A DNA stretch of 64,000 bases, taken from positions 66,758-130,757 of the forward strand of contig DAOLSP010000006.1 of NCBI GenBank assembly GCA_035419245.1, in the 5' to 3' direction. Made by a program: the position numbers and the translations under genes. Below the pieces are notes generated by a model that made no database searches, had not been told where the DNA came from, and was given only the letters and a program-made list of their open reading frames with translations. Each line of letters begins with the position of its first letter. Within the stretch, counting starts at the first letter, position 1. Shown in pieces: positions 3,172 to 46,831 of the stretch. The DNA is from a bacterium. GTDB lineage: Bacteria; Zhuqueibacterota; Zhuqueibacteria; Residuimicrobiales; Residuimicrobiaceae.

Positions 3172-3184
3172 TTCCCGGCAGTTA

Positions 3185-4021: not shown

Positions 4022-4037
4022 TCTTTCCTCCCGAGGG

Positions 4038-17068: not shown

Positions 17069-18898
17069 ATGCGTATTCGAGCAATTGTTACCATTATGGC
17101 CCTTGTGTTGATGACCTCCTGGGCCTTCTCCCAGGAGTACTCCGCCAGAGAATCCTTCGATTATCCCATCGGCGCCTCCATCGATACCCTCATGGGCGCA
17201 GCAGCCAACGGCTTTCAGGGCGGGTGGTACAAGATCGTCGCTGCGGCCCCCAATGCGGCCGTCGCTTCCGATGCCGGCCTGCCCTATGACGACCTTAACT
17301 ACAACGTCCCCCACGCCGGCAATCACCTCGAAAGTGTGCCGTTGGCTACCGCCACCGAGCAGCGCTGGGGCCGGCACCTCGATAAAACCTGGCCCTGCGT
17401 CGCCGGCAACGTCTACTGGATCAGTATTATAATGGATGTCAAGAACGCCACCGACAACGCCACCTGGGTCGGCGTCAAGTACTACGACGGCGATACCGGC
17501 GAACTCGGCATGTTCGGCAAAGGGCACGGCATGGACAAATACTCCGTAGGCAGCGGCTGGCATGGCAGCGCCGGCCCTGAAGTATCCAATGTCTCCTGGG
17601 ATGCCGGCCCGGTCTGGCTGGTTGGCAAGACCGTAATGAAGGGCGTTGGCAACCCTGCCTACGACACCACCTACATGTGGATCAATCCCGATCCGACCGC
17701 GGGCGAGCCCAGCACGACAACCGCTGATGCCGTGGCCAATACCAGCATGGAAAACGGTTTCAATACAGTCCGCATCGAATTCGGCGGCACCGTCGGTGAC
17801 GGGCTCCAGGTCAGTTTCGACGAACTGCGCATGGGTACCTCCTTCGCCGCAGTCTCCTCCGACATCTACCTGGCCCGCGAATCCTTCGAGTACCCCGTCG
17901 GCACCTCCATTGATGCCGGAATGGGCACTGCGGGCAATGGCTGGCAGGATGCCTGGTATACCATAGTTGCTGCCCAGGCTGGCGCCGCGATCACTTCCGA
18001 TACCGGCCTGCCCTATGACGATCTCAACTACAGCATCGCCAATGTCGGCAATCACCTCGAAAGCGTGCCGTTAGCAACCGCCACCGAGCAGCGCTGGGGC
18101 CGTCGCCTCGATAAAACCTGGCCTTGCGTCGCCGGTCAGAACTACTGGATCAGCTTTATCATGGATGTCAAGAACGCTTCCGACAACGCGACCTGGCTTG
18201 GCATCAAATATTATGATGGCGATACCGGCGAGCTGGGGATGTTCGGCAAAGGCCACGGCATGGACAAATACACCGTGGGCAGCGGATGGCATGGCAGCGC
18301 CGGCCCCGAAGTCTCCAACGTCTCCTGGGATGCCGGCCCGGTATGGATCGTCGGCAAAACAGTCATGAAGGGCGTCGGCAACGCCGATTATGACACCACC
18401 TACATGTGGATCAACCCGGATCCGGCAGGTGGACAGCCCGCCGTAGCGGCCGCGGACGCCGTTGCCAACACCAGCATGGAGAACGGCTTCAACACGGTCC
18501 GCATCGAATTCGGCGGCACGGTGGGTGACGGCCTCCAAGCCAGTTTTGATGAGCTGCGGATGGGCACCACATGGGGCGACATCTCCACGCCACTGCTCGC
18601 CACTGCAGTGGAGTCCCACCCGGTCGCCTCGCCGGAATCGTTCAGCCTTTCCCAGAACTATCCGAACCCCTTCAATCCGAGCACCACGATCAATTATACG
18701 CTCCGGACCACCGGCAAGGTGCGTCTCGCCGTCTATGATATGACCGGGCGCGAGGTGGCGGTTCTCGTGGATCAGGTCCAGAATGCCGGCGAGCACATCG
18801 CCCGCTTCACCCCGAAGGACCTGCCCAGCGGCATCTATGTCTATCAACTCAGGACTGCTGATCAGCTCCTCAGCAACAAGATGGTCCTGATCAAGTAA
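17069..18898 (+). CDS. T9SS cargo protein: signal peptide, two tandem ~243-aa repeats of an unrecognised domain, type-A C-terminal sorting domain
   Basis: AAGGAG RBS before ATG 17069. Signal peptide MRIRAIVTIMALVLMTSWAFSQ. Repeat 1 (ARESFDYPIGAS…) and repeat 2 (ARESFEYPVGTS…) are ~85% identical. C-terminus LSQNYPNPFNPSTTINYTL…GIYVYQL…KMVLIK matches the Por_Secre_tail pattern. Confidence 0.85.
   Translation: MRIRAIVTIMALVLMTSWAFSQEYSARESFDYPIGASIDTLMGAAANGFQGGWYKIVAAAPNAAVASDAGLPYDDLNYNVPHAGNHLESVPLATATEQRWGRHLDKTWPCVAGNVYWISIIMDVKNATDNATWVGVKYYDGDTGELGMFGKGHGMDKYSVGSGWHGSAGPEVSNVSWDAGPVWLVGKTVMKGVGNPAYDTTYMWINPDPTAGEPSTTTADAVANTSMENGFNTVRIEFGGTVGDGLQVSFDELRMGTSFAAVSSDIYLARESFEYPVGTSIDAGMGTAGNGWQDAWYTIVAAQAGAAITSDTGLPYDDLNYSIANVGNHLESVPLATATEQRWGRRLDKTWPCVAGQNYWISFIMDVKNASDNATWLGIKYYDGDTGELGMFGKGHGMDKYTVGSGWHGSAGPEVSNVSWDAGPVWIVGKTVMKGVGNADYDTTYMWINPDPAGGQPAVAAADAVANTSMENGFNTVRIEFGGTVGDGLQASFDELRMGTTWGDISTPLLATAVESHPVASPESFSLSQNYPNPFNPSTTINYTLRTTGKVRLAVYDMTGREVAVLVDQVQNAGEHIARFTPKDLPSGIYVYQLRTADQLLSNKMVLIK
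17144..18602 (+). repeat. Tandem direct repeat, 2 x ~729 bp, within the CDS
   Basis: Period 729 nt (second copy begins ~17873), ~88% nucleotide identity. Mirrored by duplicated spurious ORFs on the minus strand (17051..18055 and 18071..18913). Confidence 0.85.
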
Positions 18899-19010: not shown

Positions 19011-21005
19011 TCACTTTTCCGCCGGGAGGTTCTTTGCCGTTTTCACTCGCGCAAGCAGCACCCGGGCAGGCTGATAGCCCGGGAAGCGCCGAAGGGTGCG
19101 CTCGAGCAGGCTGACGGCGAGTTCCGCTTTTCCTGTGGCAAAATAGGCCAGGGCAAGCATATAGGCCGTATCGGGTGCTGTGGCCGGGTCCTCCGGAAAG
19201 CGCCCCAGGGATTCGTAGTAGCGGATGGCTTCTGTGAGACGGCGCTGCTTGAGGCAAATGTCACCGAGAACCCGTGTTGCCACCCGGGTGGGCTCCACCT
19301 GCAGTGAAGCCAGCAGCAGGGTCTCCGCCTTGACAAAATCCTGATCATCGTAGTGAATTTTTGCTAGATGGAGATAGGCCATGACCTGGTGCGGCAGCTG
19401 ATTGATAATGGTTTCGTATTCTTTCGCTGCGCGTCCGCGCTCGCCCCGCCGCAGATAATAGGCCGCGGCGCGCTCATGCACGGTGACCCAGCCGAACTGG
19501 TTGCGGACGGCTTGATCCGCGAGCGCGCGTAGGGTATCGCTGGCCGGGACGGCTGGAATGGGCAGCGCCCGGGTTTGAAAAGGCCAGCGGGTGGTAAGGA
19601 GAGCAATCTTGCGCTCGGCCATATAGTCATCCACCGGAGTCAAGGGCCGGTTCTGCCAGAGCAGGCTCTCCGCCGCTGCGCCACCATGCTCCCAGGCCGC
19701 CGCCGGCACCGGCAAACCCCGCTGCTGCAAGATGCGGGCATACTCCGCGGCCATCAGAAACTGTCCTCGAGCGGTGGGATGAAGATGTTCGCTGATGAGA
19801 TTAAGGCCGATGAGGGAGTCCGGCGAAGCTGCCTTGAAGCAGAGTTCGATATCCGCGACCTGGCAACCCTCCCGGTGCGCCATCGAGCGGATCAGATCGT
19901 TGAACCGGCTGTCGGTGCGGAAGCGCAGCGCATCAAGATCCCTCGCCCGCTGGTATTCGTGCAAGGCCTGTTCCTTGTGGCCGAGGGCATCGCAGCACTG
20001 CGCCAGGCGATAATGGACCTCGGCATAGCTGGAATCTAGCTGCATCGCCTCCTGAAAAGGGACCCGCGCGGAATCCGCCTGACCGCGAGCCTGCAGATCC
20101 CGCCCGATCTGGAAGAGCTGCTGAAATCGCCTGATGACAGCCGGATCCAGGCCCGCGGCATGCAGCGAAACAAAAGGTACCTGCTGGCGCAGGTTGGAGG
20201 CCTGGGTCGAAAACAGCAGCGGGATGTGATGCTGCCGGCAAAGATCCGCTAGCGCCAGCATGTTCTTTTGAAAAATCTCAAAGGCCTGGTTGTAAAGCCG
20301 GCTTCCCTGTGGTACTGTGCGCCCGCCCGCGACCTGTTCCATCAGCGTCGTGCGCCCGACCGATTCCTCATCCTGGGTCCCGAAAAGGCCGAGCACCTTG
20401 AGGAGCCCCTCCCGGACGAGTTGGAAGGTGCGCATGTGGACCAGTCGGAGATAGAGGAGATTGAGGGTGCGGGAGGTTGTCAGGCGTGCGTTCGAGGCGA
20501 CTCCAAGCGCCCCATAGAATTCATTGTGGCCGTCGTAGACGATCACAAGGTCGGGCTGGTACCGGAAGAGCTCCCGGCCAATATCGAGCACCGTGTAGCT
20601 GTTAGTCGCCGTCATGCCGAGATTGATGACCTCGACCGGCTGGCCGGGACAAAGCGCTTTCAGACGCTCGCGGAGAAAGGAAGCAAAGGCCCCGTTGTAC
20701 CAGTAGGGGTAGCCGACGGTGGTCGATCCACCCAGGCAGAAAATCCGGAAGGTTCCAGCCGGCTTGTCCGCACCTAGGTACTCCGGCGATGGATCCGGAG
20801 TGAAACGGGTGCTGTTGCCGAAATAACGGTTCTTGCAGGCGGGATTGAGGGTGTACCAAGTACGGCCCTGAAAACGCTCCTGCGAAAAAAGGGCGAGATC
20901 GGGGCCAAAATCAATCCAGCGTAATAAAAGCTCGAACAAGCCGAGAAGCAGTAGGGGTAGCAGCACGGCAAGCAGGGTGAAGAGACACCTTCGCCGGGGA
21001 TTCAT
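19011..21005 (-). CDS. Membrane-anchored SGNH/GDSL-like hydrolase domain protein with C-terminal TPR repeats
   Basis: N-terminal anchor MNPRRRCLFTLLAVLLPLLLLGLF. SGNH-like blocks (FCLGGSTTVGY, VIVYDGHNEF, SEHLHPT). Multiple TPR-like helical repeats in the last ~250 aa. The longest ORF starts with TTG at 21101; internal ATGs at 21053 and 21005. 21005 was chosen because it places the signal anchor at the N-terminus. Confidence 0.65.
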   Translation of the reverse strand: MNPRRRCLFTLLAVLLPLLLLGLFELLLRWIDFGPDLALFSQERFQGRTWYTLNPACKNRYFGNSTRFTPDPSPEYLGADKPAGTFRIFCLGGSTTVGYPYWYNGAFASFLRERLKALCPGQPVEVINLGMTATNSYTVLDIGRELFRYQPDLVIVYDGHNEFYGALGVASNARLTTSRTLNLLYLRLVHMRTFQLVREGLLKVLGLFGTQDEESVGRTTLMEQVAGGRTVPQGSRLYNQAFEIFQKNMLALADLCRQHHIPLLFSTQASNLRQQVPFVSLHAAGLDPAVIRRFQQLFQIGRDLQARGQADSARVPFQEAMQLDSSYAEVHYRLAQCCDALGHKEQALHEYQRARDLDALRFRTDSRFNDLIRSMAHREGCQVADIELCFKAASPDSLIGLNLISEHLHPTARGQFLMAAEYARILQQRGLPVPAAAWEHGGAAAESLLWQNRPLTPVDDYMAERKIALLTTRWPFQTRALPIPAVPASDTLRALADQAVRNQFGWVTVHERAAAYYLRRGERGRAAKEYETIINQLPHQVMAYLHLAKIHYDDQDFVKAETLLLASLQVEPTRVATRVLGDICLKQRRLTEAIRYYESLGRFPEDPATAPDTAYMLALAYFATGKAELAVSLLERTLRRFPGYQPARVLLARVKTAKNLPAEK

Positions 21006-21143
21006 GGCCTGGAGCACAACATCACGATCTTGCTTTTTCACATCTCTCTCCATTGTCGGAAGCAGAGCAAACGGGATGGGAGAATATATAGCAATAAACA
21101 ATCCGATTCAATTCCTATTTATCATTTCCTGGAGGTACAGAAG

Positions 21144-24100
21144 ATGAACCAGACGAAAAACCTGCTGGGATGGGTCCTCTTGCTTTCGCTCATTCTGGCG
21201 GGTGCGCTCCTCGCGGGAACGACCGGCAAGATCGCCGGGACTATCACCGAAAAGTCGACGGGGGAAGCCCTGCCCGGGGCCAACATCCTCGTCACCGGCT
21301 CTCGCCTGGGTGCAGTGACCGATCTTAGCGGTCGCTACACCATTCTCGAGGTTCCGCCCGGGACCTATTCGCTCCAGGTCACCTTTCTTGGCCATCAGAA
21401 GACCATCGTCAATGATGTCCGCGTTTACATCGACCAGACCGCGCGCGTCGATGTCGCCATGATCCAGGAAGCGATCGAGATCGGAGATGTGGTGGTGGTC
21501 GCTGAACGGCCGCTGATAAAGCCCGATGTGGCCACCAGTGTGGTCGCCGTCTCCGGCACCGAGCTCAAAAGCCTGCCGGTAGCCAATGTGACCGACGTCA
21601 TGGGGATGCAGGCAGGCATTGACGGTACCAACATTCGCGGCGTCGGTCTCGATGAAGCCCTCTTCATGGTCGACGGCGTCACCATGCGCGATCCGCGCAA
21701 CAACCAGGCCCTCACCAAGGTGGCGCTAAGCACTGTACGCGAGATCTCGGTTGAGCGCGGCGGTTTCAATGCCGAATACGGCCAGGTTCAGTCCGGCATC
21801 GTCAACGTGGTCACCAACGAGGGCAAGGCCAGAGGCTACTCGGGCAGCTTCAATCTTCGTCTGACTCCGCCGGCACGCAAGTATTTCCACGGCTCGGACA
21901 TGCCCGATGTCAACTCACCCCAATCCTACTGGCTGCGCCCTTTCTATGATGACGCGGTCTGCTGGACTGGGACCACCAGCGGCGCCTGGGACACCTACAC
22001 CCAATCCAAATATCTTGAATTTGAGGGCTGGAATGCTGTTTCGCAGCAGCTCTGCACCGACAACAACCCGAACAATGATCTCTCACCGCTGGCTGCCCGG
22101 CGGGTTTTCGAATACTATACCCGCAAGCGGCAGATCAACGATCAGCCCGACTATGAAATCGATGGCGGCTTTGGCGGACCGGTGCCAATTGTCTCCAAGA
22201 TGCTGGGCAACCTGCGTTTCTTCGCCTCCTACCGCGGACAAAAGAGCCTCTTGCTGTGGCCGAGCGCGCGGCCGGATTACAAGGATTACGACGCCCGCAT
22301 CGTCGTCAATTCAGACGTCAGTGAGTCCATGAGGCTGCGCATTTCGGGCTTATCCGGAAACATCGCGACCATGGCCGGCAACCGCGCTTCCGAATCCACC
22401 TACAAGCAATGGCCCTACGAACTGGCCGGCACCACGCTCGGGACCGGGGGCTATGCCCTTTTCAACATGTTCAGCGACTGGACCTACGGCCTCGCAAACC
22501 GCAAACACAATGCCCTTTCCGCCAAACTGACCCACATGCTCAGCAAATCGACCTATTATGAGATTTCGGCGGAATATTTCAACCGTAAATACGACACCCA
22601 CTCGCCGGAGATGCGCGATACCTCCAAAACCACTGAAATCATCCCCGGCTATTTCGCCACCTCCACGCCTTATGGGGTTTTCTACGGCATCGACGGCATC
22701 GTTAGCGGCATCAATGAAGGCAACCAGAACGCCCTTGCCCGCGACAAGTCGAACGTCAGCAGCACTACGCTCAAGGCGGATTTGACCAGCCAGGTCAACT
22801 TCAACAACCTCGTCAAGTCGGGGGTCGAGTTTGTTTACAACGACCTGAACCTCGATTACGGCTACATCCGCATGCAAAGCGGCGGGCTGCAATATGACAA
22901 TCGGACCCAGATGCGCGATTTCCCGGTCCGGGCTGCCATGTATTTACAGGATAAACTCGAGACCAAGGGATTCATCCTCAACGTGGGCCTGCGCCTCGAT
23001 TATAGCAATTCGCGCACCGACTGGTGGGCCCTTGACCCATTCAATCCCCTGTTCTACTCCTACAAGTATACAGAGACCGCCGATTTGGCCAAGACCAAGG
23101 CGAAGGGGCAATGGCAGCTCTCTCCACGCCTCGGCATCTCCCACCCCATCACCGACCGGTCCAAGCTCTACTTCAACTATGGCCATTTCAAACAGATGCC
23201 GACCTATGAATCCCAGTACCGCTTTGACCGCTCCTCTGACAATACGCTGGTCCGTTTCGGCGATCCCAATCTGACCCTGGCCAAAACCATCGCCTATGAA
23301 CTGGGCTACGATCACGATCTCTTCAATGGCCAGCTTCTCCTCCAACTGGCCGCTTTTTACCGGGACATCAGCGACCAGCAGAATACCACCTCCTACCGCC
23401 CGGCCTATGGCACAGCCTACACGGTGACCACCAGCACCGCTTATTCCGACATCCGAGGCTTCGAGCTCACCCTGCGCAAATCGGCCGGACGCTGGTTCTA
23501 CGGCTTTTTAAATTATACCTATCAAGCCACCTCGAATGGCGCCTTCGGCGAGAATTATGTCTTCGAGGATCCCAAGTCGCAGCAAGATTACGATGAGAAC
23601 ACGGTGAATATCTATCAGACCCGCTCGGTGCCCTCTCCCTTCGCCCGGGCCAACCTGACCTTCTCCACGCCGCGACAGTTCGGCCGCCCAAGACTCTTCA
23701 ACCACGCGGTCCTGGGTGATCTGATCGCCAATATTCTGCTGCGTTGGAATCAGGGCGGCTGGACAACCTACAATCCCAATAACGCCGGCACCACCAGTTT
23801 CAACAACAACACCAATAACAAGATCCAGAACAACATTCAGTATCTCGACTACTTCGATGCCACCCTGCGTTTAAGCAAGTCCATCCAGATCCGCAAGGTC
23901 AATCTGCAGGTTTTCGCTGACATCAACAACCTCTTCAACACCCGTCGTCTCAATAACACCGGTGATCTGAACTATCGTAAATCCCTGCATCTGCCCCGGA
24001 GCGATGCCTACAACAATATCCCAGGCGACGATAAATTTGGCGATTACCGCAAGCCCGGCGTCGCCTGGCAGCCTATGGAGAATGGCGTGGACTTTAACTC

Positions 24101-24338
24101 CATCCCCTCCTCCAACCGTGCCTGGTATTACGACAAATCCACGAACGCTTACTGGTATTATACCGACAACGTTACGGTCCTGGAGGTTAAGGACCGCTGG
24201 GCCAAGGTCGATAAGGCCAAGGTCGATAAGGCCATCAAGGACAGGGCGTATATCGATATGCCCAATCCCTCCACTTACTGGTTCCTCAATCCGCGGACGG
24301 TCACCTTTGGGGTTCGTCTCGCCTTCGATATCGATTGA
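21144..24338 (+). CDS. TonB-dependent receptor-like outer-membrane protein with N-terminal CarboxypepD_reg-like domain
   Basis: GGAGG RBS 8 nt before ATG. Signal peptide. Cna-B/carboxypeptidase-regulatory-like beta-sandwich (GKIAGTITEKSTGEALPGANILV…). Plug-like region, then ~800 aa of alternating beta-barrel sequence. The C-terminus ends …VRLAFDID, which is not the canonical terminal aromatic. Confidence 0.7.
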   Translation: MNQTKNLLGWVLLLSLILAGALLAGTTGKIAGTITEKSTGEALPGANILVTGSRLGAVTDLSGRYTILEVPPGTYSLQVTFLGHQKTIVNDVRVYIDQTARVDVAMIQEAIEIGDVVVVAERPLIKPDVATSVVAVSGTELKSLPVANVTDVMGMQAGIDGTNIRGVGLDEALFMVDGVTMRDPRNNQALTKVALSTVREISVERGGFNAEYGQVQSGIVNVVTNEGKARGYSGSFNLRLTPPARKYFHGSDMPDVNSPQSYWLRPFYDDAVCWTGTTSGAWDTYTQSKYLEFEGWNAVSQQLCTDNNPNNDLSPLAARRVFEYYTRKRQINDQPDYEIDGGFGGPVPIVSKMLGNLRFFASYRGQKSLLLWPSARPDYKDYDARIVVNSDVSESMRLRISGLSGNIATMAGNRASESTYKQWPYELAGTTLGTGGYALFNMFSDWTYGLANRKHNALSAKLTHMLSKSTYYEISAEYFNRKYDTHSPEMRDTSKTTEIIPGYFATSTPYGVFYGIDGIVSGINEGNQNALARDKSNVSSTTLKADLTSQVNFNNLVKSGVEFVYNDLNLDYGYIRMQSGGLQYDNRTQMRDFPVRAAMYLQDKLETKGFILNVGLRLDYSNSRTDWWALDPFNPLFYSYKYTETADLAKTKAKGQWQLSPRLGISHPITDRSKLYFNYGHFKQMPTYESQYRFDRSSDNTLVRFGDPNLTLAKTIAYELGYDHDLFNGQLLLQLAAFYRDISDQQNTTSYRPAYGTAYTVTTSTAYSDIRGFELTLRKSAGRWFYGFLNYTYQATSNGAFGENYVFEDPKSQQDYDENTVNIYQTRSVPSPFARANLTFSTPRQFGRPRLFNHAVLGDLIANILLRWNQGGWTTYNPNNAGTTSFNNNTNNKIQNNIQYLDYFDATLRLSKSIQIRKVNLQVFADINNLFNTRRLNNTGDLNYRKSLHLPRSDAYNNIPGDDKFGDYRKPGVAWQPMENGVDFNSIPSSNRAWYYDKSTNAYWYYTDNVTVLEVKDRWAKVDKAKVDKAIKDRAYIDMPNPSTYWFLNPRTVTFGVRLAFDID

Positions 24339-24373
24339 TGGCCAGCCACCAACCTAACGAATGGGAATGCACG

Positions 24374-26647
24374 ATGAATAAAAAGAAAATGAGACGCTTG
24401 CCCCTGCTGCTGGCCATTAGTACCCTGTTAGGGGCCGGCAGTATCGATCGTACAACGGCCCAGGACCTCCGGTGGATCCGAGTCGGCCAGCTGCAATGCT
24501 TTTTCATGGATTTCGGAAACGAGTGCGAACTTTATCCTTTCACGACGACCAATTTTCTCGCCTGGCCCGCCCAGTATGGAGATAACCAGTATGCCACCCG
24601 CGCGAAAGCGGTCTGGATAGGGGCGAGCGATTTTTATGACCCCGTCGAGAAAAAGACCAAATCGGTCAAGGTGATCGGCTCCGGACCGCGTTATGACGCG
24701 GACAACCAGGCGGCGATGATTTTTTCGACCAGCATCAAGCTGATCGGCCGCGAACAACCCCCGAAAGTCATCGTCGACAACCAGAACGGCTCTTCCAATA
24801 CCCTTTATGATGCCCTGGACGAAATCGACCCCAACCTCCCCAGCGACCGGATGGTGGTCATCCGTTATAACACCTCCATGGGGGTGTCGGTCATCAAAAA
24901 AGTTCTCGGCTTTGTCCAGCAAAACCATGACACCTATTTCATCCACGACTACGTTTTCAAGAATACCGGCATTTATAATACCAAGGGTGAAATCAACGCC
25001 CAGACGCTCAAGAACTTTTGGGTCTATTTCAGCTACCGATATGCGATGAATGGGGTCTGCTCGAATGGTTACAGTTCGGCATGGGGCGATTTCGGAATGG
25101 AATGGGGCTCCAGCACGGTAGCCCACGACTTCGGACCCCCCTACCGCTCCCGCCCGGACAGCCTCCGCGGTTTTTATGCCTTCTACAGCCCGCTGAAGGG
25201 AAGTTATGGCACCCGCAACGCCGTGACCAGTCTCGGCTATGACTACGACTGGGGCTGCCCGAAGCAGACCGGCGGCGGACTCAACCTCGACGGTCTCCTC
25301 GGTGCCGCCAAATTTGCTGGCTGCGTAACCCTGCTCGCTTCCAAGGGATCCGGCGCCCTGTTCAACATCGACGACTACAATCAACCTGCGACCGTGAACT
25401 ATTTCAATGCCGACGGTTCAACAACAACCAACCCGCAAAGCCAGTATGACGAAACCGCAATGAAGCTGCGCTGGGCGGAGATGACCGAAGGCCACCTGCA
25501 AAAGTCGCTATGGGAGGCCGTCGGTGATGGACGCTACTACGCCGACTGGCTGAACACGGATCCCCTGCATCCCTCCGGCGGCATGTATGGCCAGGGCTTC
25601 GGCCCCTATACCCTGGCCCCCGGCGACAGCATCCGCATCGTCTTCGCCGAAGGCGTCAATGGTCTGGCTTGGGAAAAATGCCGCGAGGTGGGGGCCAACT
25701 GGTATCAGTACTTCGCCGGGACCGGGGCACCGACCCTCATCAAGCCGGATGGCAACACTACGACCAACGTCTCGGAATACCAGAAGGCCTGGGTCTTTTC
25801 GGGTGTCGATTCCATTCTACAGACGTATAAGAACGCCCGCGCCAATTTCCGCTCCGGCTACAAAATCCCCCAGCCCCCGCCGGCGCCGGCCTCCTTCACC
25901 GTCGCCTCCGGTGGCGATGCCATCAGCCTGACCTGGGCCGACAACGCCGACAAGACCCCCCACTTCAACGGCTATGTGATCTACCGCTCTGAGGGGCTGG
26001 TCAAGGACTACCGCGCGGTCTATGAAAAGATCTTTGAATGCGATGCCGCCCATGTGACCCACAGCTTTGACGACACCTCCGCAACCCGCGGCTTCAATTA
26101 TTACTACTTTATTCAATCCAAGGATGACGGGACGCAGAACGACGTCAAACCGGGCGTGCCGCTTTACAGCAGCATGTTCCTGACGATGACCTCGGTTTCT
26201 GCCAATCTGCTCCGCCCATCAGGCGATCTCCTCGCCGAGGTGCGCGTTGTCCCCAATCCCTACGATATCCGCTCCCGCAAATGGCAATTCGGCGAGGTCG
26301 GGCCTTATGATCGGATCATGTTTTATGGGATCCCACCCAAATGCAAGCTCAAAATCTTCAGCGACGACGGCACCCTGATCTGGGAAACCGTGCACAACAA
26401 TGGCTCCGGGGATGAGCCGTGGGACTCCAAGACCTCCTCTAACCAGATCGTCGTCAGCGGCATCTACATCCTCTATGTCGAGGTGACTGAGGATACCTAT
26501 GCAACCGACGACCGCATTGCGCGCTACGACATCACGGACGAGAATCTCAAGACGATCTATAAACAGGGTGAAGTGCTCTATCACAAAGGCGACAAAATCT
26601 TCAGCGCCGGACAGTCGACATTCCGCAAATTCGTAATTATTCGATAA
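24374..26647 (+). CDS. Secreted protein with Fn3 domain and a CTD-like C-terminal region
   Basis: Signal peptide MNKKKMRRLPLLLAISTLLGAG. Fn3-like segment (PPPAPASFTVASGGDAISLTWAD…YVIYRSEG…). C-terminal VVPNPYD…KLKIFSDDGTLIWE…WDSKT…GIYILYVEV… resembles T9SS/gliding CTD type B but carries ~50 extra residues ending …FVIIR. Lies 36 nt after the receptor gene. Confidence 0.7.
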   Translation: MNKKKMRRLPLLLAISTLLGAGSIDRTTAQDLRWIRVGQLQCFFMDFGNECELYPFTTTNFLAWPAQYGDNQYATRAKAVWIGASDFYDPVEKKTKSVKVIGSGPRYDADNQAAMIFSTSIKLIGREQPPKVIVDNQNGSSNTLYDALDEIDPNLPSDRMVVIRYNTSMGVSVIKKVLGFVQQNHDTYFIHDYVFKNTGIYNTKGEINAQTLKNFWVYFSYRYAMNGVCSNGYSSAWGDFGMEWGSSTVAHDFGPPYRSRPDSLRGFYAFYSPLKGSYGTRNAVTSLGYDYDWGCPKQTGGGLNLDGLLGAAKFAGCVTLLASKGSGALFNIDDYNQPATVNYFNADGSTTTNPQSQYDETAMKLRWAEMTEGHLQKSLWEAVGDGRYYADWLNTDPLHPSGGMYGQGFGPYTLAPGDSIRIVFAEGVNGLAWEKCREVGANWYQYFAGTGAPTLIKPDGNTTTNVSEYQKAWVFSGVDSILQTYKNARANFRSGYKIPQPPPAPASFTVASGGDAISLTWADNADKTPHFNGYVIYRSEGLVKDYRAVYEKIFECDAAHVTHSFDDTSATRGFNYYYFIQSKDDGTQNDVKPGVPLYSSMFLTMTSVSANLLRPSGDLLAEVRVVPNPYDIRSRKWQFGEVGPYDRIMFYGIPPKCKLKIFSDDGTLIWETVHNNGSGDEPWDSKTSSNQIVVSGIYILYVEVTEDTYATDDRIARYDITDENLKTIYKQGEVLYHKGDKIFSAGQSTFRKFVIIR

Positions 26648-26660
26648 CGGGAGCAGATCG

Positions 26661-27725
26661 ATGAAAAAAATAACCGCAATTCGCCTTTTCGGAAGTATCC
26701 TGGTCCTGCTCGCCTCGGTCGGTGGAAATGCCCAGGATAACCAGAAACTGGCGCAGACCAGTTTCAAATTCCTGAGTGTCGTCTCTGACGCCCAGGGCGC
26801 CGCCATGGCCGGCGCAATGACCAGCCTGCCGTTGGGCTCCAGCGCCCTCTTTTTCAATCCGGCAGGGATGGCGAATATGGAAAGGCGCGCCGACCTATCG
26901 CTCAGCAATAACGAGTGGATCGCTGATATCCGGCACTATACGGTGGGCCTGGCACTCAATCCGGCCAATGGCAAATACGGCGTGGTCGGACTGAGTCTGC
27001 AGTATGCCGATTTTGGGAGCTTCATTGGCACAGTGGTCAGCAAGGATCCTGCCAACCTCAAAGGCTACGAAGAGACCGGCCTTTTCGATCTCAATGCCTA
27101 TGCCGTGGGTCTCGGCTACGCCAGGGCGCTTACCGACCGCTTCAGCGTCGGTGGGCAAATCCGTATGGCCCATCAGGATCTCGGAGAGAGCCGGATTCCC
27201 AACGAATCCAAACACATCCCGATCTATGATGATTCGAATCACGCCATCATCGGCTATGAGGACTCGACGGCTACAGGCACCAACCGCCTCACGCCCCTGG
27301 TCTTCGACTTTGGCACCCAGTTCAAGACCGGCGTTAAGAGCCTCGTCTTCGGCATGTCGGTGCGTAACTTCTCCAAGGAAATTCAATATGTCTATGAGCA
27401 GTTCCAGCTGCCCCTGGTTTTCACCCTCGGGATCTCGATGAATCTGATGGATCTTTTTCATGAGGTCCCGTATAACCAGTCCCTGGTGATGAGCATCGAT
27501 GCAAGCCATTACCGGGACCATCCCGAGCAGCTCAAGGTCGGATTGGATTACCGGATCATGAACATGATCGCCCTGCGCGGCGGCTATGTCACCGCCAGCG
27601 ATGAGAACAGTGGCTTTTCGTTCGGACTCGGCGTCTATAAATCAGGCTTCGCCTTTGATTACGCCTATACCCCCTACGGGGTCTTCGATAACGTCCAGCG
27701 CATGACCGCCCGGATCTCACTGTAA
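26661..27725 (+). CDS. FadL-superfamily outer-membrane beta-barrel (PorV/PorQ/PorP-like)
   Basis: Signal peptide. N-terminal hatch-like motif …SDAQGAAMAGAMTSLPLGSSALFFNPAGMAN, matching the GxGxA…DDA…NPA pattern shared by FadL/PorV-type 14-strand barrels. 354 aa. Lies 14 nt downstream of a CTD-bearing gene. Confidence 0.65.
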   Translation: MKKITAIRLFGSILVLLASVGGNAQDNQKLAQTSFKFLSVVSDAQGAAMAGAMTSLPLGSSALFFNPAGMANMERRADLSLSNNEWIADIRHYTVGLALNPANGKYGVVGLSLQYADFGSFIGTVVSKDPANLKGYEETGLFDLNAYAVGLGYARALTDRFSVGGQIRMAHQDLGESRIPNESKHIPIYDDSNHAIIGYEDSTATGTNRLTPLVFDFGTQFKTGVKSLVFGMSVRNFSKEIQYVYEQFQLPLVFTLGISMNLMDLFHEVPYNQSLVMSIDASHYRDHPEQLKVGLDYRIMNMIALRGGYVTASDENSGFSFGLGVYKSGFAFDYAYTPYGVFDNVQRMTARISL

Positions 27726-27745: not shown

Positions 27746-29002
27746 ATGATGAAACCTTGCTGTATCTTAACCCTCGTCACGCTCCTGCTGGCGGCTGCCG
27801 GACTTTTGCTGACCGGTTGCGAATTTGATGTCGCCGAGCCCAAGTGGGAGGAGCCCGCGCCTGCTACCGCCGCCGTCTCGATTTCATCGATCGATCCGGC
27901 AGCCGCGGTTGCGGGCGTGAATTATATCACCATTCATGGCGCTAATTTCACCGGCGCGATTGATACCCTGATCGTCAAGAGCTCGGACAAGGATACCAGT
28001 TACCGCTATCTCTATAATGGCATCTACTTCGATGATGTCAAGGCGGATGTTGTCGAGTTCTCCGACACCGTCATTAAGGTGCGCCGACCCAAACTGGCCA
28101 ACGAGGCCTGTCAGGTCAAGGTGGTCTCCAATAAGGCGATGGCCACGGCCAAATATGCCCAGCCTTACAGGATCGACGCGGTCGTCGGCCGCTATGGCCT
28201 GTTCAACGAGGATCTGCCGCTGGCAGTGGTTGTCGTGGATGCCCGCGAGAATCTCTATGTAGTTGAGACCAACACCCGTTATATCCAAAAAATCACCCCT
28301 AGCGGCGACAAGACCAACATCGCCTCCGCCCTGCGCGTCCCCTACGACGCCAGCATCGGAGGGGACGGCAATCTCTATCTGGCCGGAAACAACAGGGCCA
28401 TCGACCGGGTTGACCTCTCCACTGGAACCATCGCTCGCTGGGTGAACCTCCCATCGGGAAAAGTGGTGAAATTCCTTGATTTCAGCGAAACCGGATACTG
28501 CTTTGCCGGCGGAACCCGTACCGATCTGGTCGTCATTCCCGGGGATCTGTCAACCACCGCGGTCTCAGCCGGTTTTTACGCCACGCAGGAGATCCTCGCC
28601 ATCCGCTGCTATAACGGCGCCGTATACGTCGCTGCCCGGGCCACAGCAGCCGATCCGGTCAAGATCTACCGGCATGCCATTGGCGACAAGGGCAGCGTCG
28701 GCGCCCAAGAGCTGGTCCTCGATCTCTCCAAAACCAGCATGTTCGCCGGCCGAAGCCTCAAGGCCATCAGTTTCGCCTCGGATGGTACCATGATAATCGC
28801 AACCGATGCAGCCGATCCCCTGCTCAGCTATACTCCCGCCACCGGCCAGATGGATTATTATTACAAGGGAATCCTCAATCCATATTGCAAGCACTTTTCC
28901 TGGGGCAGTAAGACTTATCTCTATATGATCTGCGGCGATGACACCGCCGGCGAAGAGTGGACGGTCTATCGCGTCGACATGGGGACGACAGCGGGCAACT
29001 GA
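27746..29002 (+). CDS. Lipoprotein with IPT/TIG-like domain and beta-propeller-like C-terminal region
   Basis: Lipobox LLTGC. Ig-like segment (SISSIDPAAAVAGVNYITIHGANFTG). Repetitive beta-rich C-terminal part (NLYVVE / NLYLAG repeats). Confidence 0.65.
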   Translation: MMKPCCILTLVTLLLAAAGLLLTGCEFDVAEPKWEEPAPATAAVSISSIDPAAAVAGVNYITIHGANFTGAIDTLIVKSSDKDTSYRYLYNGIYFDDVKADVVEFSDTVIKVRRPKLANEACQVKVVSNKAMATAKYAQPYRIDAVVGRYGLFNEDLPLAVVVVDARENLYVVETNTRYIQKITPSGDKTNIASALRVPYDASIGGDGNLYLAGNNRAIDRVDLSTGTIARWVNLPSGKVVKFLDFSETGYCFAGGTRTDLVVIPGDLSTTAVSAGFYATQEILAIRCYNGAVYVAARATAADPVKIYRHAIGDKGSVGAQELVLDLSKTSMFAGRSLKAISFASDGTMIIATDAADPLLSYTPATGQMDYYYKGILNPYCKHFSWGSKTYLYMICGDDTAGEEWTVYRVDMGTTAGN

Positions 29003-29085
29003 CCCCCGTCACCATCCAGCCCAGGGCCTGTGGCGTCTGCAACAGGCCCTATTATTAATTGCACGGTCAACCCCAGGGAGTCTCC

Positions 29086-31017
29086 ATGCGTCTTACCATG
29101 TCAAGCCTGCTTTGTTTCCTCGGCCTCGCGGGATCCACGCTGCTTCCGGCGCAAACGGCCGAGAACTGTTTTCTCGTGGATTTCGCCCCCAGGACGGCGT
29201 GGATCCCACCCTCTCAGGCGGCGGCTAAACCGCCCGCCAATCCGGACGTGATCGTGACCATCAGCACCATGGATACGCTTGGCAAGGTTTCCCCGTACAT
29301 CTTTGGCAATGCCCTGGCGGCCTGGGTAGGCAATGACGTGATGAACAAGGTGCTTATCGGCCATATCCAGGAGCTCTCCCCCACCCTCATCCGCTATCCC
29401 GGCGGCAGCTGGGGCGATATCTTTTTTTGGAATGGCGATCCAGGCGACCTGCCTGCCACCATCCCCGACGGCGCCAACAATGGCGCAGCGATCCCCCTCT
29501 CCCCTCAGTTCGGTGCGAACAGCTGGACCACGACTCTGGATAACTATTATTCCATGCGCGATCAGGTCAACGCAACCCAGGGATTGATCACCGTCAACTA
29601 TGGCTATGCCCGCTACGGCCTTGGTGATAAACCGGTGGAGCGCGCCGCCCATCTGGCTGCCGACTGGGTCCGCCATGATGAAGGTCGCACCAAATTCTGG
29701 GAGATCGGTAATGAGAACGCCGGGCCGTGGGAAGCCGGCTGGCAGATTGATACCACCCGCAACCGGGACGGCCAACCCAAAATCATCACCGGCGAGATCT
29801 ATGGACGCCACTTTAGAATTTTCGCTGATTCCATGCGGGCCGCGGCGGCCGAAATGGATGAAACCATTTACATCGGCGGTCAGATCCTCCACTATGACGG
29901 CACGACCAGCTGGAATGTCGCGGACCGAACCTGGAATGAAGGGTTTTTCCGGGAAGTCGGTGGGAGTGCGGATTTTTATGTGATGCACAATTATTTCGGC
30001 AGCACCGGGGTCAGCAAGGCCAGGAGCCAGATCGATCTGGCGCGCAGCGAGATCAACAAAAACATAACCTTCATCCGCCAGGATATCGCCCGGAAACAGG
30101 CCTTCAGCAGACCGGTCGCCCTGACGGAGTGGAATATGGTCGATCATCCCCAGGCCGTGACCTCCATCGCGAACGGCATGCAGGCCGTCGTGCTCAGCTG
30201 CGAGATGATCCAGAACCAGTTCGGCCTGTCGGCCCGCTGGCTGCTGGTTCATTGGGAATCCGGCGGGATGTTCTACAAGGGCGCCAACCCGGCCATTCCA
30301 GCCTGGAGCCCGCGTCCCGACTTTTACTATCTCTACTACCTGCAGCGTTTCACCGGCAACCACAGCATCAAATCAGCTGTGGCCGGCAGCAGCGATGTGC
30401 TCTCGTACGCCACTACCTTCGCCTCCGGCGAGCTGGGCGTGGTGACCGTCAACAAGGGCGCCACCGAACAGATCATCCAGCTCTCGCCGCAAGATTTCTC
30501 CCCAGGCGGCCAATACTACCTCTACTCGCTCGTCGGAGAGACCAGCGAGCAATGGGCGCAAAAGGTCGTGGTGAACGACGCCGGCCCATCGGGAGCAGCC
30601 TGGGGACCGGTTGAGGGGCTGGAAAAGATACTCGCCCGGGCTTACGACACCAACGGCGGGATCCGCTACACCTCACCGCCGTTGTCGGTGCAGTATGTGC
30701 TCATTAGCCGCGCCGTGAACCGCGTCGAATCCGCACCCCCCCTAACGCCGGACCATTTCGAACTCGGCCCCAATTATCCGAATCCCTTCAACGCCCGGAC
30801 CATGATCTCTTATCGTCTACCCCATGAGATAGAGGTGAGGCTGCGGATCCTGGACCTGAGCGGGCGAGAGGTCGCTCAATTGCTCGCTGGCACCCGGCAG
30901 CAAGCTGGTGTGTACCGCATCGCGTTTGATGCCAGCTGTCTCAGCAGCGGCCTCTATCTCTGTAGACTGGAGGCAGGCCCCCTCGCTGCAACCCGGAAAA
31001 TGCTCCTGATCAAGTGA
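29086..31017 (+). CDS. T9SS-secreted clan GH-A glycoside hydrolase (GH51/GH39-like, possible alpha-L-arabinofuranosidase) with type-A CTD
   Basis: AGGGAG RBS. Signal peptide. RYPGGSWGDIFFWNGD N-terminal block. Acid/base WEIGNENAGPWE and nucleophile LTEWNM motifs of clan GH-A. C-terminal LGPNYPNPFNARTMISY…GLYLCRL…KMLLIK CTD. Confidence 0.8.
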   Translation: MRLTMSSLLCFLGLAGSTLLPAQTAENCFLVDFAPRTAWIPPSQAAAKPPANPDVIVTISTMDTLGKVSPYIFGNALAAWVGNDVMNKVLIGHIQELSPTLIRYPGGSWGDIFFWNGDPGDLPATIPDGANNGAAIPLSPQFGANSWTTTLDNYYSMRDQVNATQGLITVNYGYARYGLGDKPVERAAHLAADWVRHDEGRTKFWEIGNENAGPWEAGWQIDTTRNRDGQPKIITGEIYGRHFRIFADSMRAAAAEMDETIYIGGQILHYDGTTSWNVADRTWNEGFFREVGGSADFYVMHNYFGSTGVSKARSQIDLARSEINKNITFIRQDIARKQAFSRPVALTEWNMVDHPQAVTSIANGMQAVVLSCEMIQNQFGLSARWLLVHWESGGMFYKGANPAIPAWSPRPDFYYLYYLQRFTGNHSIKSAVAGSSDVLSYATTFASGELGVVTVNKGATEQIIQLSPQDFSPGGQYYLYSLVGETSEQWAQKVVVNDAGPSGAAWGPVEGLEKILARAYDTNGGIRYTSPPLSVQYVLISRAVNRVESAPPLTPDHFELGPNYPNPFNARTMISYRLPHEIEVRLRILDLSGREVAQLLAGTRQQAGVYRIAFDASCLSSGLYLCRLEAGPLAATRKMLLIK

Positions 31018-31026
31018 TCCCACTAC

Positions 31027-33462
31027 CTATTCGCTGATGATCTGCAGCACCGCCTCCTGCAAGCCTTCCGAACGGGCGGTTAAAACGATCACGCCCGGCT
31101 CGTCGCGCGTCTGGATCACGCACAGGCATTTACCGTTGAACGCCATGCGATGGTCCGCCTTGAAGGGCTCCATGCTGGTCTGGAGGCCGTTATCGACACC
31201 GGCGATCACAGCCGGCCCCTGCAGGGAAAACTGCACCAGGTTGTCCGCCCGCGGCGCCAGGACCCCGGCGCTATCCACGACCTCGACCGTCACGAACGAA
31301 AGATCACGGCCGTCCGCCTTGATGCGATCGCGGTCGGCGGTCAGGACTATTTTTGCCGGAGCCCCGGCAGTCTGCATACGCTGCTCGAGCACTGCGCTGC
31401 CCTCCTTATAGGCCACCGCCTTGAGAAAGCCTGGTTCGAAGGGCACCCGCCAGACCAGCTGGAAGGTATCGCGGGTCTTCTCCTTTTTGCCCAGGGAACG
31501 ACCGTTGAGGAACAGCTCCACCGCACCCTGGTTGGTGTAGGCCCAAACATCGATCACCTGGCCGGATTGCCAGTTCCAATGCGGGAAGAGATGCAGCATA
31601 GGCCGGCTGGTCCATTCGGCCTGATAAAAATAGTAGCCATCCTTGGGGAAACCGGCCAGATCGATCAGGCCGAAGTAGGAGCTGCGCGCCGGCCAGGGAT
31701 AGGGCGTCGGCTCGCCGAGATAATCGAAACCGGTCCAGATAAACATGCCGGAGACATAGGGATACTCGCGCACGATCCGCCAGTTATCAGCATGGGTGGC
31801 CCCCCAGGGGACGCGGCAGTTGTCGTAAGCCGAGCAGGTGAGATCGGGATTCATCGGCCCCCGTTTGTTCCAGGCAATCGGCCAGATCCGCACGGAATCG
31901 GAGGGCATGTCATACGCGCCACGGGTGGCGATGGCGGAGTTGGTTTCGCTGGCGACTAGTTTCAGTCCCGGATAATCCTGGGGGAAGGTTCGCAGATCTT
32001 GCTCGTGATAGTTGCGGCCGACGACATCCAGAGCGCCCGAGCGGATGATGCGATTCTGCGGCGAGGGGTCGTTGCAGGCCGAGGTGATCGGTCGGGTAGG
32101 ATCGAGATCGCGGACGATTGCAGCCAGCTCTTTGGCCATCTCGATGCCGCTGTCATCCCACTGTTCGGGAATCTCGTTGCCTATGCTCCAGAGCACCACG
32201 CAAGGATGGTTGCGGTCACGCCGTATCAGATCCTCGAGATCACGGCGGTGCCATGCATCCCAATCGAGGTGATAATCGTAGGGATTCTTGGGCAGCTTCC
32301 ACATATCGTAGGCCTCGTCCATAACCAGTAAGCCCATGCGGTCGCAAAGGTCGAGCAATTCCGGCGCCGGTGGATTGTGGGAGGTACGGATGGCATTGCA
32401 GCCCATCGCCTTGAGCAGCTCGAGCTGACGCTCGAGGGCGCGCTCGTTGATCGCCGCCCCGAGGCAGCCGAGATCGTGATGGTTGCAGACCCCCAGCAGC
32501 TTCATCGCCACCCCGTTGAGGGCGAAGCCTTTCTCCAGGTCGAAAGCGATGGTGCGGATGCCAAAGGGGGTCTCGTACCGGTCCTCCTCCCGGTTTTCAG
32601 CCAGCACCCGGGTCACCGCACGATAGAGCACCGGCTTTTCGACCGACCACAAGGCCGGCTGCGTCACGGTGACGTTCCCTGATATTGGTTCAACGGCTCC
32701 CGGGGGCACACTTATCGCATTGCGCAGAGCAGCCACCCGGCGGCCAGCGGGATCGAAAACCTCGGTCATGACCGTCACCTGCTGCGAAGTCTCGCGGTCA
32801 TTGCGAACCCGGATCTGCAGGGAAATCACCGCCTGCTGCGCCGAGACTTCCGGCGTAGTGATGCAGGTGCCCCAGTGATCAACATAGACCCGGCCGGTGA
32901 GGGTCAGCCAGACATTGCGGTAGATCCCCGAGCCGGAATACCAGCGCGAATTGGGCTGCTTCGAGTTGTCGACACGCACCGCGAGGACATTCGCGGCACC
33001 ACCGAATTTCAGCCACGGTGTGAGTTCATACCGGAAGGAACTGTACCCGTAGGGCCGCTTGCCAAGGTAATGGCCGTTAATCCATACCTCACTGTTGCGG
33101 TACACGCCGTCGAAATCAATGAAAGCGCTACGGCCCATGTCCGCCTGCAGCAGCGTGAAGGTTTTGCGGTACCATCCGATGCCGCCGGGCAGGGCGCCGC
33201 CGTCGGTCGTAGCGGGGTTATCCTTGCTGAACGCCCCCTCGATGCTCCAGTCGTGGGGCAGGTTCAGGGTTCGCCAGTCACTGTCGGCGAAACCGGGTTC
33301 CTGGGCGCCAGGGAGATCCCCCAGCTTGAACTTCCAGTCTCGGGTGAAGCGCTCGATCCTCCGCGGGGACGGTCCAGGGGCGGAACACTGCATGCAGATC
33401 GTCGCCAAGGCCATAAGGGAAACCGCCATCCTAAGGGCCACCAGACTCTGATTACAGGTCAT
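31027..33462 (-). CDS. GH2 beta-galactosidase-like glycoside hydrolase, secreted
   Basis: GH2 sugar-binding, Ig-like and TIM-barrel order (NLPHDWSIEG…, WSIGNE acid). ~800 aa. Hydrophobic N-terminus. Start ambiguous: GTG at 33468, ATG at 33462 (chosen, GGAG upstream) or ATG at 33429. Confidence 0.8.
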   Translation of the reverse strand: MTCNQSLVALRMAVSLMALATICMQCSAPGPSPRRIERFTRDWKFKLGDLPGAQEPGFADSDWRTLNLPHDWSIEGAFSKDNPATTDGGALPGGIGWYRKTFTLLQADMGRSAFIDFDGVYRNSEVWINGHYLGKRPYGYSSFRYELTPWLKFGGAANVLAVRVDNSKQPNSRWYSGSGIYRNVWLTLTGRVYVDHWGTCITTPEVSAQQAVISLQIRVRNDRETSQQVTVMTEVFDPAGRRVAALRNAISVPPGAVEPISGNVTVTQPALWSVEKPVLYRAVTRVLAENREEDRYETPFGIRTIAFDLEKGFALNGVAMKLLGVCNHHDLGCLGAAINERALERQLELLKAMGCNAIRTSHNPPAPELLDLCDRMGLLVMDEAYDMWKLPKNPYDYHLDWDAWHRRDLEDLIRRDRNHPCVVLWSIGNEIPEQWDDSGIEMAKELAAIVRDLDPTRPITSACNDPSPQNRIIRSGALDVVGRNYHEQDLRTFPQDYPGLKLVASETNSAIATRGAYDMPSDSVRIWPIAWNKRGPMNPDLTCSAYDNCRVPWGATHADNWRIVREYPYVSGMFIWTGFDYLGEPTPYPWPARSSYFGLIDLAGFPKDGYYFYQAEWTSRPMLHLFPHWNWQSGQVIDVWAYTNQGAVELFLNGRSLGKKEKTRDTFQLVWRVPFEPGFLKAVAYKEGSAVLEQRMQTAGAPAKIVLTADRDRIKADGRDLSFVTVEVVDSAGVLAPRADNLVQFSLQGPAVIAGVDNGLQTSMEPFKADHRMAFNGKCLCVIQTRDEPGVIVLTARSEGLQEAVLQIISE

Positions 33463-33545
33463 AGACACTCCTGATAAAATTAAAATACCTTGAAGGACGA
33501 GTGTCCAGCAGCCACGCCCTCCCTTCCCGCGTGGCTGCGCTCTTC

Positions 33546-46825: not shown

Positions 46826-46831
46826 TGTGCT

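Follow-up and report, generated by a model that had tools for sequence, protein, structure and literature searches.

The window analysed here, the whole 64,000-nt stretch at positions 66,758 to 130,757 of contig DAOLSP010000006.1 (GenBank assembly GCA_035419245.1; G+C content ~58-60%), comes from a bacterium of the phylum Zhuqueibacterota and contains a cassette of four head-to-tail genes on the forward strand. In this order, they encode a TonB-dependent transporter, a large protein with a C-terminal domain (CTD) resembling type IX secretion system (T9SS) sorting signals, an outer-membrane barrel, and an IPT lipoprotein (Table 1). The second protein, hereafter called the cargo, and the barrel gene behind it are the main subject of this analysis. 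The open reading frame (ORF) of the cargo spans 24335-26647, and a homologue alignment supports the ATG at 24374 as its start, which gives a protein of 757 aa. Its TAA stop codon lies at 26645-26647 and the next ATG at 26661. The initial annotation had thus correctly placed a barrel gene just downstream, but its protein length of 758 aa and its spacer of 14 nt were each one too long. The transporter is SusC-like in its N-terminal part only, scoring 69.6 bits on the SusC/RagA model TIGR04056 (cut-off 368), and the lipoprotein gene directly follows the barrel gene, an arrangement that is kept in related loci. Within the operon, candidate promoter- and terminator-like sites did not exceed the level expected from shuffled sequence, and scans for tRNA and Rfam matches in the window found none.

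Table 1. Features of the cassette and its surroundings, with positions counted from the first letter of the window (GH, glycoside hydrolase family; AF2, AlphaFold2).
Feature	Position	Strand	Basis
643-aa protein upstream of the cassette, bona fide type A T9SS tail	16967-18898	+	PF18962 34 bits, TIGR04183 41.6 bits
TonB-dependent transporter, 1064 aa, cassette gene 1	21144-24338	+	Pfam CarboxypepD_reg, Plug, TonB_dep_Rec_b-barrel
Cargo "X757", 757 aa, cassette gene 2	24374-26647	+	Translation, homologue alignment
PorZ/PorU-like CTD of the cargo, aa 621-757	26234-26644	+	Alignments, AF2 model, Foldseek, NCBIfam PorZ model, PDB profile
Variable insertion between sixth and last strands of the CTD, aa 706-744, three short predicted strands	26489-26605	+	Alignment, AF2 model
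Spacer between cargo and barrel genes, 13 nt, cgggagcagatcg, GGGAG ribosome-binding-like motif	26648-26660	+	Sequence
Outer-membrane barrel, 354 aa, signal peptide, cassette gene 3	26661-27725	+	NF033709 match
Lipoprotein, 418 aa, lipobox LLTGC, IPT/TIG and beta-propeller-like region, cassette gene 4	27746-29002	+	Pfam TIG, E 1.3e-5
652-aa protein with bona fide type A T9SS tail, same operon direction	29059-31017	+	PF18962 30.4 bits (cut-off 27), TIGR04183 27.1 bits (cut-off 23)
GH2	31027-33468	-	Pfam
GH31 with PA14 domain	33546-36392	-	Pfam
PD40/peptidase_MA protein	43772-46825	-	
417-aa protein with weak PorV-family match	46832-48085	-	40 bits (cut-off 90)
M6-like inactivated metalloprotease with type A tail, beside housekeeping PorV candidate	48125-51199	-	
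Housekeeping PorV candidate, 367 aa	51307-52410	-	PF19572 105 bits; NF033709 298.7 bits; PorV equivalog 231 bits (cut-off 250), full length

The cargo consists of a Sec signal peptide (aa 1-29), a beta-rich, unannotated N-terminal domain (aa 30-500), an Fn3-like domain (aa ~505-600), and the CTD (aa ~621-757), hereafter called the tail. A full-length AF2 model (pLDDT 90.6) shows the same layout: the N-terminal domain is large and rich in beta structure, and an Fn3 spacer leads from it to the tail. The description of the cargo as an Fn3 protein in the initial annotation holds at the level of the fold, as the domain is backed by the AF2 model, a PDB profile match, and FnIII hits in Foldseek, but Pfam Fn3 models found no match on the 757-aa protein. 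The N-terminal domain shows a weak Foldseek likeness (TM ~0.2) to the N-terminal beta-sandwiches of GH94 and GH116 enzymes, a PDB profile search with the cargo found only the Fn3 domain and the PorZ tail, and no catalytic assignment is possible. We also found neither a SusD match nor a lipobox in the cargo. The protein belongs to a family of more than 500 homologues, every one of them unnamed; database entries label its exact sequence "hypothetical protein", and neither the family nor its tail has a Pfam or NCBIfam model of its own.

Two further features of this family were noted. In some paralogues (P0054, P0065, P0071, and P0116), a CBM5/12 chitin/cellulose-binding module (PF02839) separates the Fn3 domain from the tail, and these insertions are consistent with a glycan-binding role of the family at the cell surface. 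In addition, Gln30 (24461-24463), which directly follows the predicted signal-peptidase site (...TTA|QD), is invariant in all 115 aligned homologues, and the barrel reads NA|QD at the corresponding site. This glutamine looks like an instance of the "Q-rule" (N-terminal pyroglutamate), which has been described as specific to Bacteroidetes and not common to the whole Fibrobacteres-Chlorobi-Bacteroidetes (FCB) group (PMC5837995).

Throughout the family, the tail is located at the extreme C-terminus and ends in a near-invariant RKFV(V/I)IR motif. The motifs that had first drawn attention to it (VVPNPYD, KLKIFSDDGTLIWE, WDSKTSSNQIVVSGIYILYVEV, and the terminal FVIIR) are all present in the translation, and the consensus of the last 92-149 residues in the alignment reads VRVVPNPYDIR.R..QFGD..QYDRIAFYGLPP.CKLKIFTERGDLIWEK.HT.GSGDE.WDS.TSS.QIVVSGIYILYVEV, followed by an insert of 0-60 aa and GES.FRKFVVIR. 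P627, N628, P629, G666, G696, Y698, and K752 are invariant in the 115 aligned sequences, and two of these 115 sequences carry canonical type A tails that align column for column. W683 and the SG.Y motif (aa 695-698) are likewise invariant in the tail. The initial annotation had counted about 50 extra residues before the C-terminus. These are real but vary in length and form two insertions rather than one, a 13-aa helix after PNPYD and a beta-meander of 0-60 aa before the last strand. Counted from PNPYD to the C-terminus, the tail measures 131 aa in the cargo; homologues free of inserts have 92 aa, others as many as 149 aa, and those that carry a canonical type A tail 78 aa. The second insertion (aa 706-744) is absent in P0081, P0099, and P0054 and reaches 60 aa in P0052; its mean identity is 49%, and it is modelled with a pLDDT of 87-97. 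Within the cargo, conservation is highest in the tail core, whose mean identity is 71% versus 56% in the N-terminal domain. With this degree of conservation across more than 500 proteins, the tail domain and its motifs are far beyond chance. In two homologues from a first search and nine more from a second one, the tail is replaced by a canonical type A tail, and these replacements retain the PNP, G666, SG.Y, and K752 positions.

Two classes of T9SS signals with defined carriers are well described: type A, which is carried by PorV, and type B, which is carried by PorP/SprF-like proteins. The initial annotation had placed the tail near type B, the gliding-motility class. We queried the available CTD models with the whole cargo and with its last 148 residues, and additionally scanned 50 family tails one by one at E<=0.01. 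The type B model TIGR04131 gave no match on the cargo at E<=1, and the type B Pfam model CHU_C (PF13585) scored 17.4-17.6 bits, below its curated cut-off of 27. The type A model TIGR04183 reached 12.9 bits (cut-off 23), and the type A model PF18962 (cut-off 27) gave no match at E<=1. The best NCBIfam match was the PorZ model NF052228 (positions 671-744 of 757, E 5.6e-6, 20.7-25.1 bits). The cargo was rejected as a PorZ orthologue, as only the CTD region of this model is matched and not its beta-propeller body, which delivers A-LPS, and the score is far below the cut-off of 260 bits. The per-tail scan gave a similar picture, with matches to PorZ (NCBIfam) in 45/50 tails, CHU_C (Pfam) in 39/50 (best 3.1e-5), the PorU sortase (NCBIfam) in 20/50, TIGR04183 in 18/50, FlgD_ig (Pfam) in 7/50, and TIGR04131 in a single tail of the 50. 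The likeness of the motifs to type B CTDs thus exists in the family, but it is weak and below threshold on the cargo itself.

Structural comparison also pointed to PorZ. In its AF2 model (pLDDT 90.2), the tail forms a compact seven-strand beta-sandwich with a helix after strand 1 and three short strands before the last strand. Its best Foldseek match in the PDB was PorZ (5m11, E 4e-6, TMq 0.50), followed by streptococcal C5a peptidase domains (ScpA/ScpB), RoxP, and FlgD; PorU (6za2) and the CTD of NucA in the SprA translocon (8glk_D, TMt 0.71) appeared further down the list. The PorZ CTD was also the best match in a sequence profile search of the PDB (E 0.016). The tail has the type A hallmarks, namely the seven-strand sandwich, a first strand of the PNP type, a glycine in the beta3-beta4 loop, a GxY strand, and a lysine in the last strand. 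This glycine is reported to be essential for secretion (PMC11285876), and the conserved lysine of type A CTDs is reported to contact PorV (PMC10994853). PorZ and PorU are T9SS proteins with uncleaved tails, which are 96 and 108 aa long compared to 67-88 aa in cleaved tails, owing to extra residues after strand 5 (PMC11285876). The cargo tail has those of PorZ and PorU as its closest matches, exceeds cleaved tails in length, and carries extra residues after strand 5. There it aligns without gaps to the NARGADGNRVA segment of PorZ, while homologues with a canonical tail are 5 aa shorter at this site. From sequence and model, the tail is thus best matched as a divergent T9SS CTD, most similar to that of PorZ and then to that of PorU.

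The partner of this tail likewise differs from what was first assumed. The initial annotation described the downstream gene as a FadL/PorP-like barrel, whereas the encoded protein scores 171.5 bits on the PorV/PorQ family model NF033709 (cut-off 90), covering model positions 1-324 of 326, and thus belongs to this family. As a FadL/OMPP1 protein (PF03349) it was rejected, with 14.5 bits over 37 model positions and a cut-off of 29.7 bits, and PorP/SprF models in NCBIfam and Pfam gave no match at E<=1. On the equivalog models the barrel reached 79.8 bits for PorQ (NF033711, cut-off 220), 59.8 for PorV (NF033710, cut-off 250), and 50.5 for PorV2 (cut-off 325), all far below the cut-offs. These scores mark it as a specialised paralogue, distinct from both PorV and PorQ proper. 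Its only PDB sequence match was Flavobacterium PorV (E 0.04), and database entries label this exact sequence "PorV/PorQ family protein". A housekeeping PorV candidate that is 21% identical to the cassette barrel is encoded elsewhere in the window, which shows that the cassette barrel is an extra, specialised copy. Together with three type A cargoes in the window, this candidate also indicates that the host has a T9SS.

These data bear directly on the idea of a divergent type B CTD of the gliding-motility class with a PorP/SprF-like partner. The order of a substrate gene followed by a barrel gene would fit it, as in sprB/sprF-type arrangements (PMC12618676), as would the weak CHU_C matches in most of the scanned tails and on the cargo. 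However, TIGR04131 recognises almost none of the tails, CHU_C remains below its cut-off on the cargo, the barrel is of the PorV/PorQ and not the PorP/SprF family, and where the domain is swapped in homologues, it is swapped for type A and not for type B tails. The type B reading is therefore largely refuted, and we regard what is left of it as the least probable of the explanations considered here.

To see how regularly tail and barrel occur together, one genome per species was scanned, which yielded 304 loci, 77 of which were retrieved. The latter are labelled as Ignavibacteriota, KSB1/Zhuqueibacter, Neomarinimicrobiota, Calditrichota, or Melioribacter, or carry generic or loose labels of metagenome-assembled genomes (MAGs; Bacteroidota/Bacteroidetes, "uncultured Cytophagia", or "bacterium"). 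The cassettes often occur several times per genome, at times in tandem, and the order of transporter, cargo, barrel, and IPT lipoprotein is kept throughout. Among 59 non-redundant copies with the PorZ-like tail and at least 1.2 kb of downstream sequence, the transporter gene lies upstream of the cargo gene in 53, and a barrel gene lies downstream in 58, within 60 nt in 53 of them and with a median gap of 14 nt. None of the five readable homologues with a canonical type A tail is followed by a barrel gene (Fisher p 4e-6, a conservative value, as one copy with a PorZ-like tail in locus L083 was counted in the wrong class). L083 itself holds both classes, as a copy ending in ...LLKFIVIR is followed by barrel and IPT genes, and a copy ending in ...NKMVLMK by a gene for a CBM9 protein. 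In this locus and in L018, L025, and L070, an extra stretch, with gaps of 730-930 nt, separates cargo and barrel genes; in L083 (4394-5074) it is a 226-aa ORF without a Pfam match.

An exhaustive profile search with the tail retrieved members of the same family in 117 of the top 150 hits, the remainder being fragments, giant repeat proteins, and two different cargoes (P0238 and P0160). P0238, from locus L087, is an unrelated FG-GAP/UnbV_ASPIC protein that carries the same tail, and a barrel gene starts 16 nt downstream of it, its product being 35% identical to the cassette barrel (E 4e-60). This locus contains neither a transporter nor an IPT gene. At 2339-8547, P0238 lies side by side with an upstream FG-GAP paralogue that has a type A tail and no barrel. 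The barrel thus travels with the tail and not with the transporter or the N-terminal domain. Computation shows that the gene pairing is near-obligate, tail-specific, and portable to another cargo. The initial suggestion of a divergent CTD class with a dedicated partner barrel in a nutrient-uptake operon is borne out in this respect, and the comparison of orthologous operons that it called for found the pair kept in all but one of the 59 copies with the PorZ-like tail. Full-text searches of open-access literature turned up no account of the cassette, nor of cargo genes in these phyla that are paired with a PorV/PorQ-type barrel; although such absence is no proof, the pairing and its recurrence across several uncultured phyla appear to be undescribed so far.

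The pairing also has to be set against the possibility that the locus has no link to type IX secretion, with the tail being a structural or carbohydrate-binding Ig domain of the FlgD type and the barrel a FadL-like channel or an accessory subunit of the transporter. FlgD appears in both the Foldseek and the Pfam results, all CTD models stay below threshold, and the core of the domain recurs as internal tandem repeats in unrelated giant proteins. Moreover, PorV-family barrels are homologues of FadL, and a FadL homologue is a subunit of the beta-barrel assembly machinery (BAM) in Bacteroides (PMC12578637). This explanation, however, does not account for the strictly C-terminal position of the domain with its near-invariant terminal motif and conserved lysine, for its replacement by canonical type A tails in homologues that then lack the barrel, or for a barrel that follows the tail even where there is no transporter, and the barrel itself is well above the PorV/PorQ cut-off while scoring poorly on the FadL model. 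We therefore consider it very unlikely. The initial annotation had named the absence of a significant CTD match and a generic Ig/FlgD-like C-terminal region as the outcome that would overturn its proposal of a sorting domain. Taken literally, this is what was found at curated cut-offs, but the fold match to PorZ, the column-for-column replacement by type A tails, and the gene-pair statistics overrule it.

In the account that we consider probable, the cargo would be exported by the T9SS and its uncleaved tail retained on the private barrel, displaying a glycan-capture protein beside the transporter. The signal-peptide-like N-terminus suggests that the cargo would first be exported by Sec. The C-terminal beta-sandwich with its type A hallmark residues would then take it through the T9SS translocon. 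The tail would not be cut by the PorU sortase but would stay on the cargo and dock on extracellular loops of the private barrel, by analogy with Porphyromonas gingivalis, where PorZ is held by PorQ and PorU by PorV. Neither PorZ nor PorU loses its tail, and both are anchored on these barrels (PMC12365241, PMC10202324), and it has been hypothesised in a review that cognate PorV-like barrels shield tails from cleavage (PMC10202324). As a result, the N-terminal domain and the Fn3 spacer would be displayed at the surface beside the SusC-like transporter and the IPT/propeller lipoprotein, where the cargo may be the lid or glycan-capture part of a polysaccharide utilisation system that lacks SusD.

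Alternatively, the barrel may act as a private shuttle only, which extracts the cargo from the translocon, after which the tail is cleaved or released and the cargo freed or attached to lipopolysaccharide (LPS). Gene-pair statistics and co-variation suit a carrier as well as an anchor, the residues recognised by the translocon are conserved in the tail, and PorV and PorP/SprF proteins have been described as shuttles (PMC12618676, PMC10994853). Still, the tail is most closely related to those of PorZ and PorU, the two tails known to be uncleaved, down to the extra length after strand 5, and ordinary cargo could already rely on the housekeeping PorV candidate. Nor would a disposable signal be expected to hold the most conserved part of the cargo, as the tail core does, but this contrast is weak evidence. 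We see a shuttle-only role as a rather unlikely alternative to retention on the barrel.

Several observations weigh against export by the T9SS and retention on the barrel. The tail falls below the curated cut-off of every CTD model, both with the whole protein and with its last 148 residues, and generic Ig domains of the FlgD type resemble its core as well. Giant proteins (P0151, P0154, P0164, P0172, P0190, P0220, and others), 1250-2460 aa in length, contain 7-15 internal tandem copies of the core, without its first and last strands, indicating that the fold also serves as a generic FlgD-type repeat outside of sorting. The tails of neighbouring type A cargoes (conservation 0.52-0.61) are about as conserved as their bodies (0.53-0.58), which provides no clear contrast with the conservation of the cargo tail. 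Co-variation speaks for the pairing: pairwise distances between barrels correlate best with those between tails (r 0.75), followed by the N-terminal domain (0.67) and the Fn3 domain (0.575), and remain correlated with the tail (0.53) more than with the Fn3 domain (0.21) when the N-terminal domain is controlled for, but such mirror-tree correlations may stem from shared operon history. Insert length in the tail and a variable barrel loop correlate only at rho 0.28 (p 0.03, not corrected for phylogeny), and this value was not used as evidence. L057 (10001-12244) is the sole copy with a PorZ-like tail that lacks a barrel gene within 22 kb. Like orphan type B substrates, this cargo may rely on a barrel whose gene lies elsewhere; its gene is followed by xylose isomerase-like, kinase, and epimerase genes, and an IPT lipoprotein gene lies upstream of the transporter gene. 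Finally, we infer T9SS export, tail retention, and tail-barrel binding alike, as well as a glycan-binding role of the N-terminal domain, the latter from its context and weak fold matches (TM ~0.2).

A function of the displayed protein in glycan capture is suggested by the GH2, GH31, and GH13 genes and the hybrid two-component regulators around related loci. Cassettes of this kind adjoin genes for GH13, GH31, GH2, GH42, GH29, trehalase, and hybrid regulators with the Reg_prop/Y_Y_Y/HisKA/HTH_AraC architecture of Bacteroides polysaccharide utilisation loci (PULs). The GH2 and GH31 genes of the window encode the carbohydrate-active enzymes of its PUL-like locus, and genes for the same enzymes come after the cassette in L078, L083, and L081. 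About 10 kb upstream of the cassette lies a gene for a GH13 alpha-amylase with a C-terminal CBM48 (9334-11394), which, like the GH31 gene, would suit an alpha-glucan theme. As neither a SusD homologue nor a lipobox in the cargo is present, another route to the surface would be needed, which the module of tail and barrel would supply. It is possible, and we propose this only tentatively, that a PorZ-like tail and a private PorQ-like barrel form a portable two-gene module that mounts a SusD-analogous capture protein beside SusC-like transporters in Ignavibacteriota, KSB1, Calditrichota, and Marinimicrobia. If so, the assembly of a polysaccharide-uptake machine would depend on the T9SS and not on lipoprotein export.

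Other genes of the window add to this context. A gene for a GDSL-lipase/acylhydrolase with TPR repeats adjoins the cassette on the reverse strand (19011-21101) and recurs near a KSB1 cassette (L079, 19126-21135), and the encoded protein may be a conserved accessory esterase of such loci. A second T9SS-related cluster is found on the reverse strand at 43772-52410 and includes the housekeeping PorV candidate. The 417-aa protein with a weak PorV-family match, encoded beside a cargo gene in this cluster, might represent another arrangement of cargo and barrel.

Among known systems, cognate pairs are known between type B substrates and PorP/SprF proteins, between PorZ and PorQ, and between PorU and PorV. 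The cassette pair resembles the latter two, in which an exported protein keeps its C-terminal sandwich on a barrel of the PorV/PorQ family (PMC12365241, PMC10202324), and accordingly its tail is closest to those of PorZ and PorU, and the PorQ model gives its barrel a higher score than the PorV model does. In contrast to PorZ and PorU, only the tail of the cargo is matched (25 bits, cut-off 260), the tail has two further insertions, and the barrel is far below both equivalog cut-offs. Furthermore, the cargo and barrel genes lie side by side, with several copies per genome within nutrient-uptake cassettes, whereas the Porphyromonas proteins are single-copy parts of the secretion machinery, and the hosts of the cassettes are Ignavibacteriota, KSB1, Calditrichota, and Marinimicrobia (several of the MAGs being loosely labelled) instead of Bacteroidia.

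With the type B pairs of Flavobacterium johnsoniae (SprB/SprF and Fjoh_3952/Fjoh_3951), the cassette shares a substrate gene followed by a private barrel gene and the presence of several pairs per genome. In these type B systems the tail is probably uncleaved, and the barrel sets secretion and final location (PMC12618676, PMC9143113). The two differ in tail family (TIGR04131 does not recognise the cargo), predicted fold, and barrel family (PorV/PorQ versus PorP/SprF), and known type B cargoes are adhesins and not parts of transporter operons. Ordinary type A cargoes that use the general PorV have the same seven-strand sandwich, PNP-type first strand, loop glycine, GxY motif, and C-terminal lysine (PMC10994853, PMC11285876), and some members of the cargo family carry a canonical type A tail at the same position. 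The cassette tail nevertheless differs from these by scores below the TIGR04183 and PF18962 cut-offs, by its length (92-149 aa versus ~78 aa), and by its private barrel. As in the SusC/SusD PULs of Bacteroidia, a SusC-like CarboxypepD_reg transporter occurs with genes for surface proteins, glycoside hydrolases, and hybrid two-component regulators, the regulators being found in related loci. A SusC-SusD pair is, however, absent, and the protein encoded after the transporter has a T9SS-type tail and its own barrel instead of being a lipoprotein.

Judged by sequence, the new elements are a PorZ-like tail class derived from type A with its own insertions and a separate PorV/PorQ subfamily encoded beside the cargo, as well as their multiple copies per genome, their use in SusD-less transporter cassettes, and a distribution centred outside named Bacteroidia. 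The cargo family thereby offers hundreds of natural, adjacent pairs of PorZ-like tails and PorQ-like barrels that bear on the question of why the tails of PorZ and PorU escape cleavage. With built-in controls in the form of paralogues that have a type A tail and no barrel, and of a foreign cargo that carries the same module, the rules of recognition and retention become directly testable. The cassette also suggests how large, mostly uncultured, SusD-less phyla of the FCB group may build surface systems for glycan capture, which bears on carbon turnover in the sediments, peat, and digesters that are the source habitats of these MAGs.

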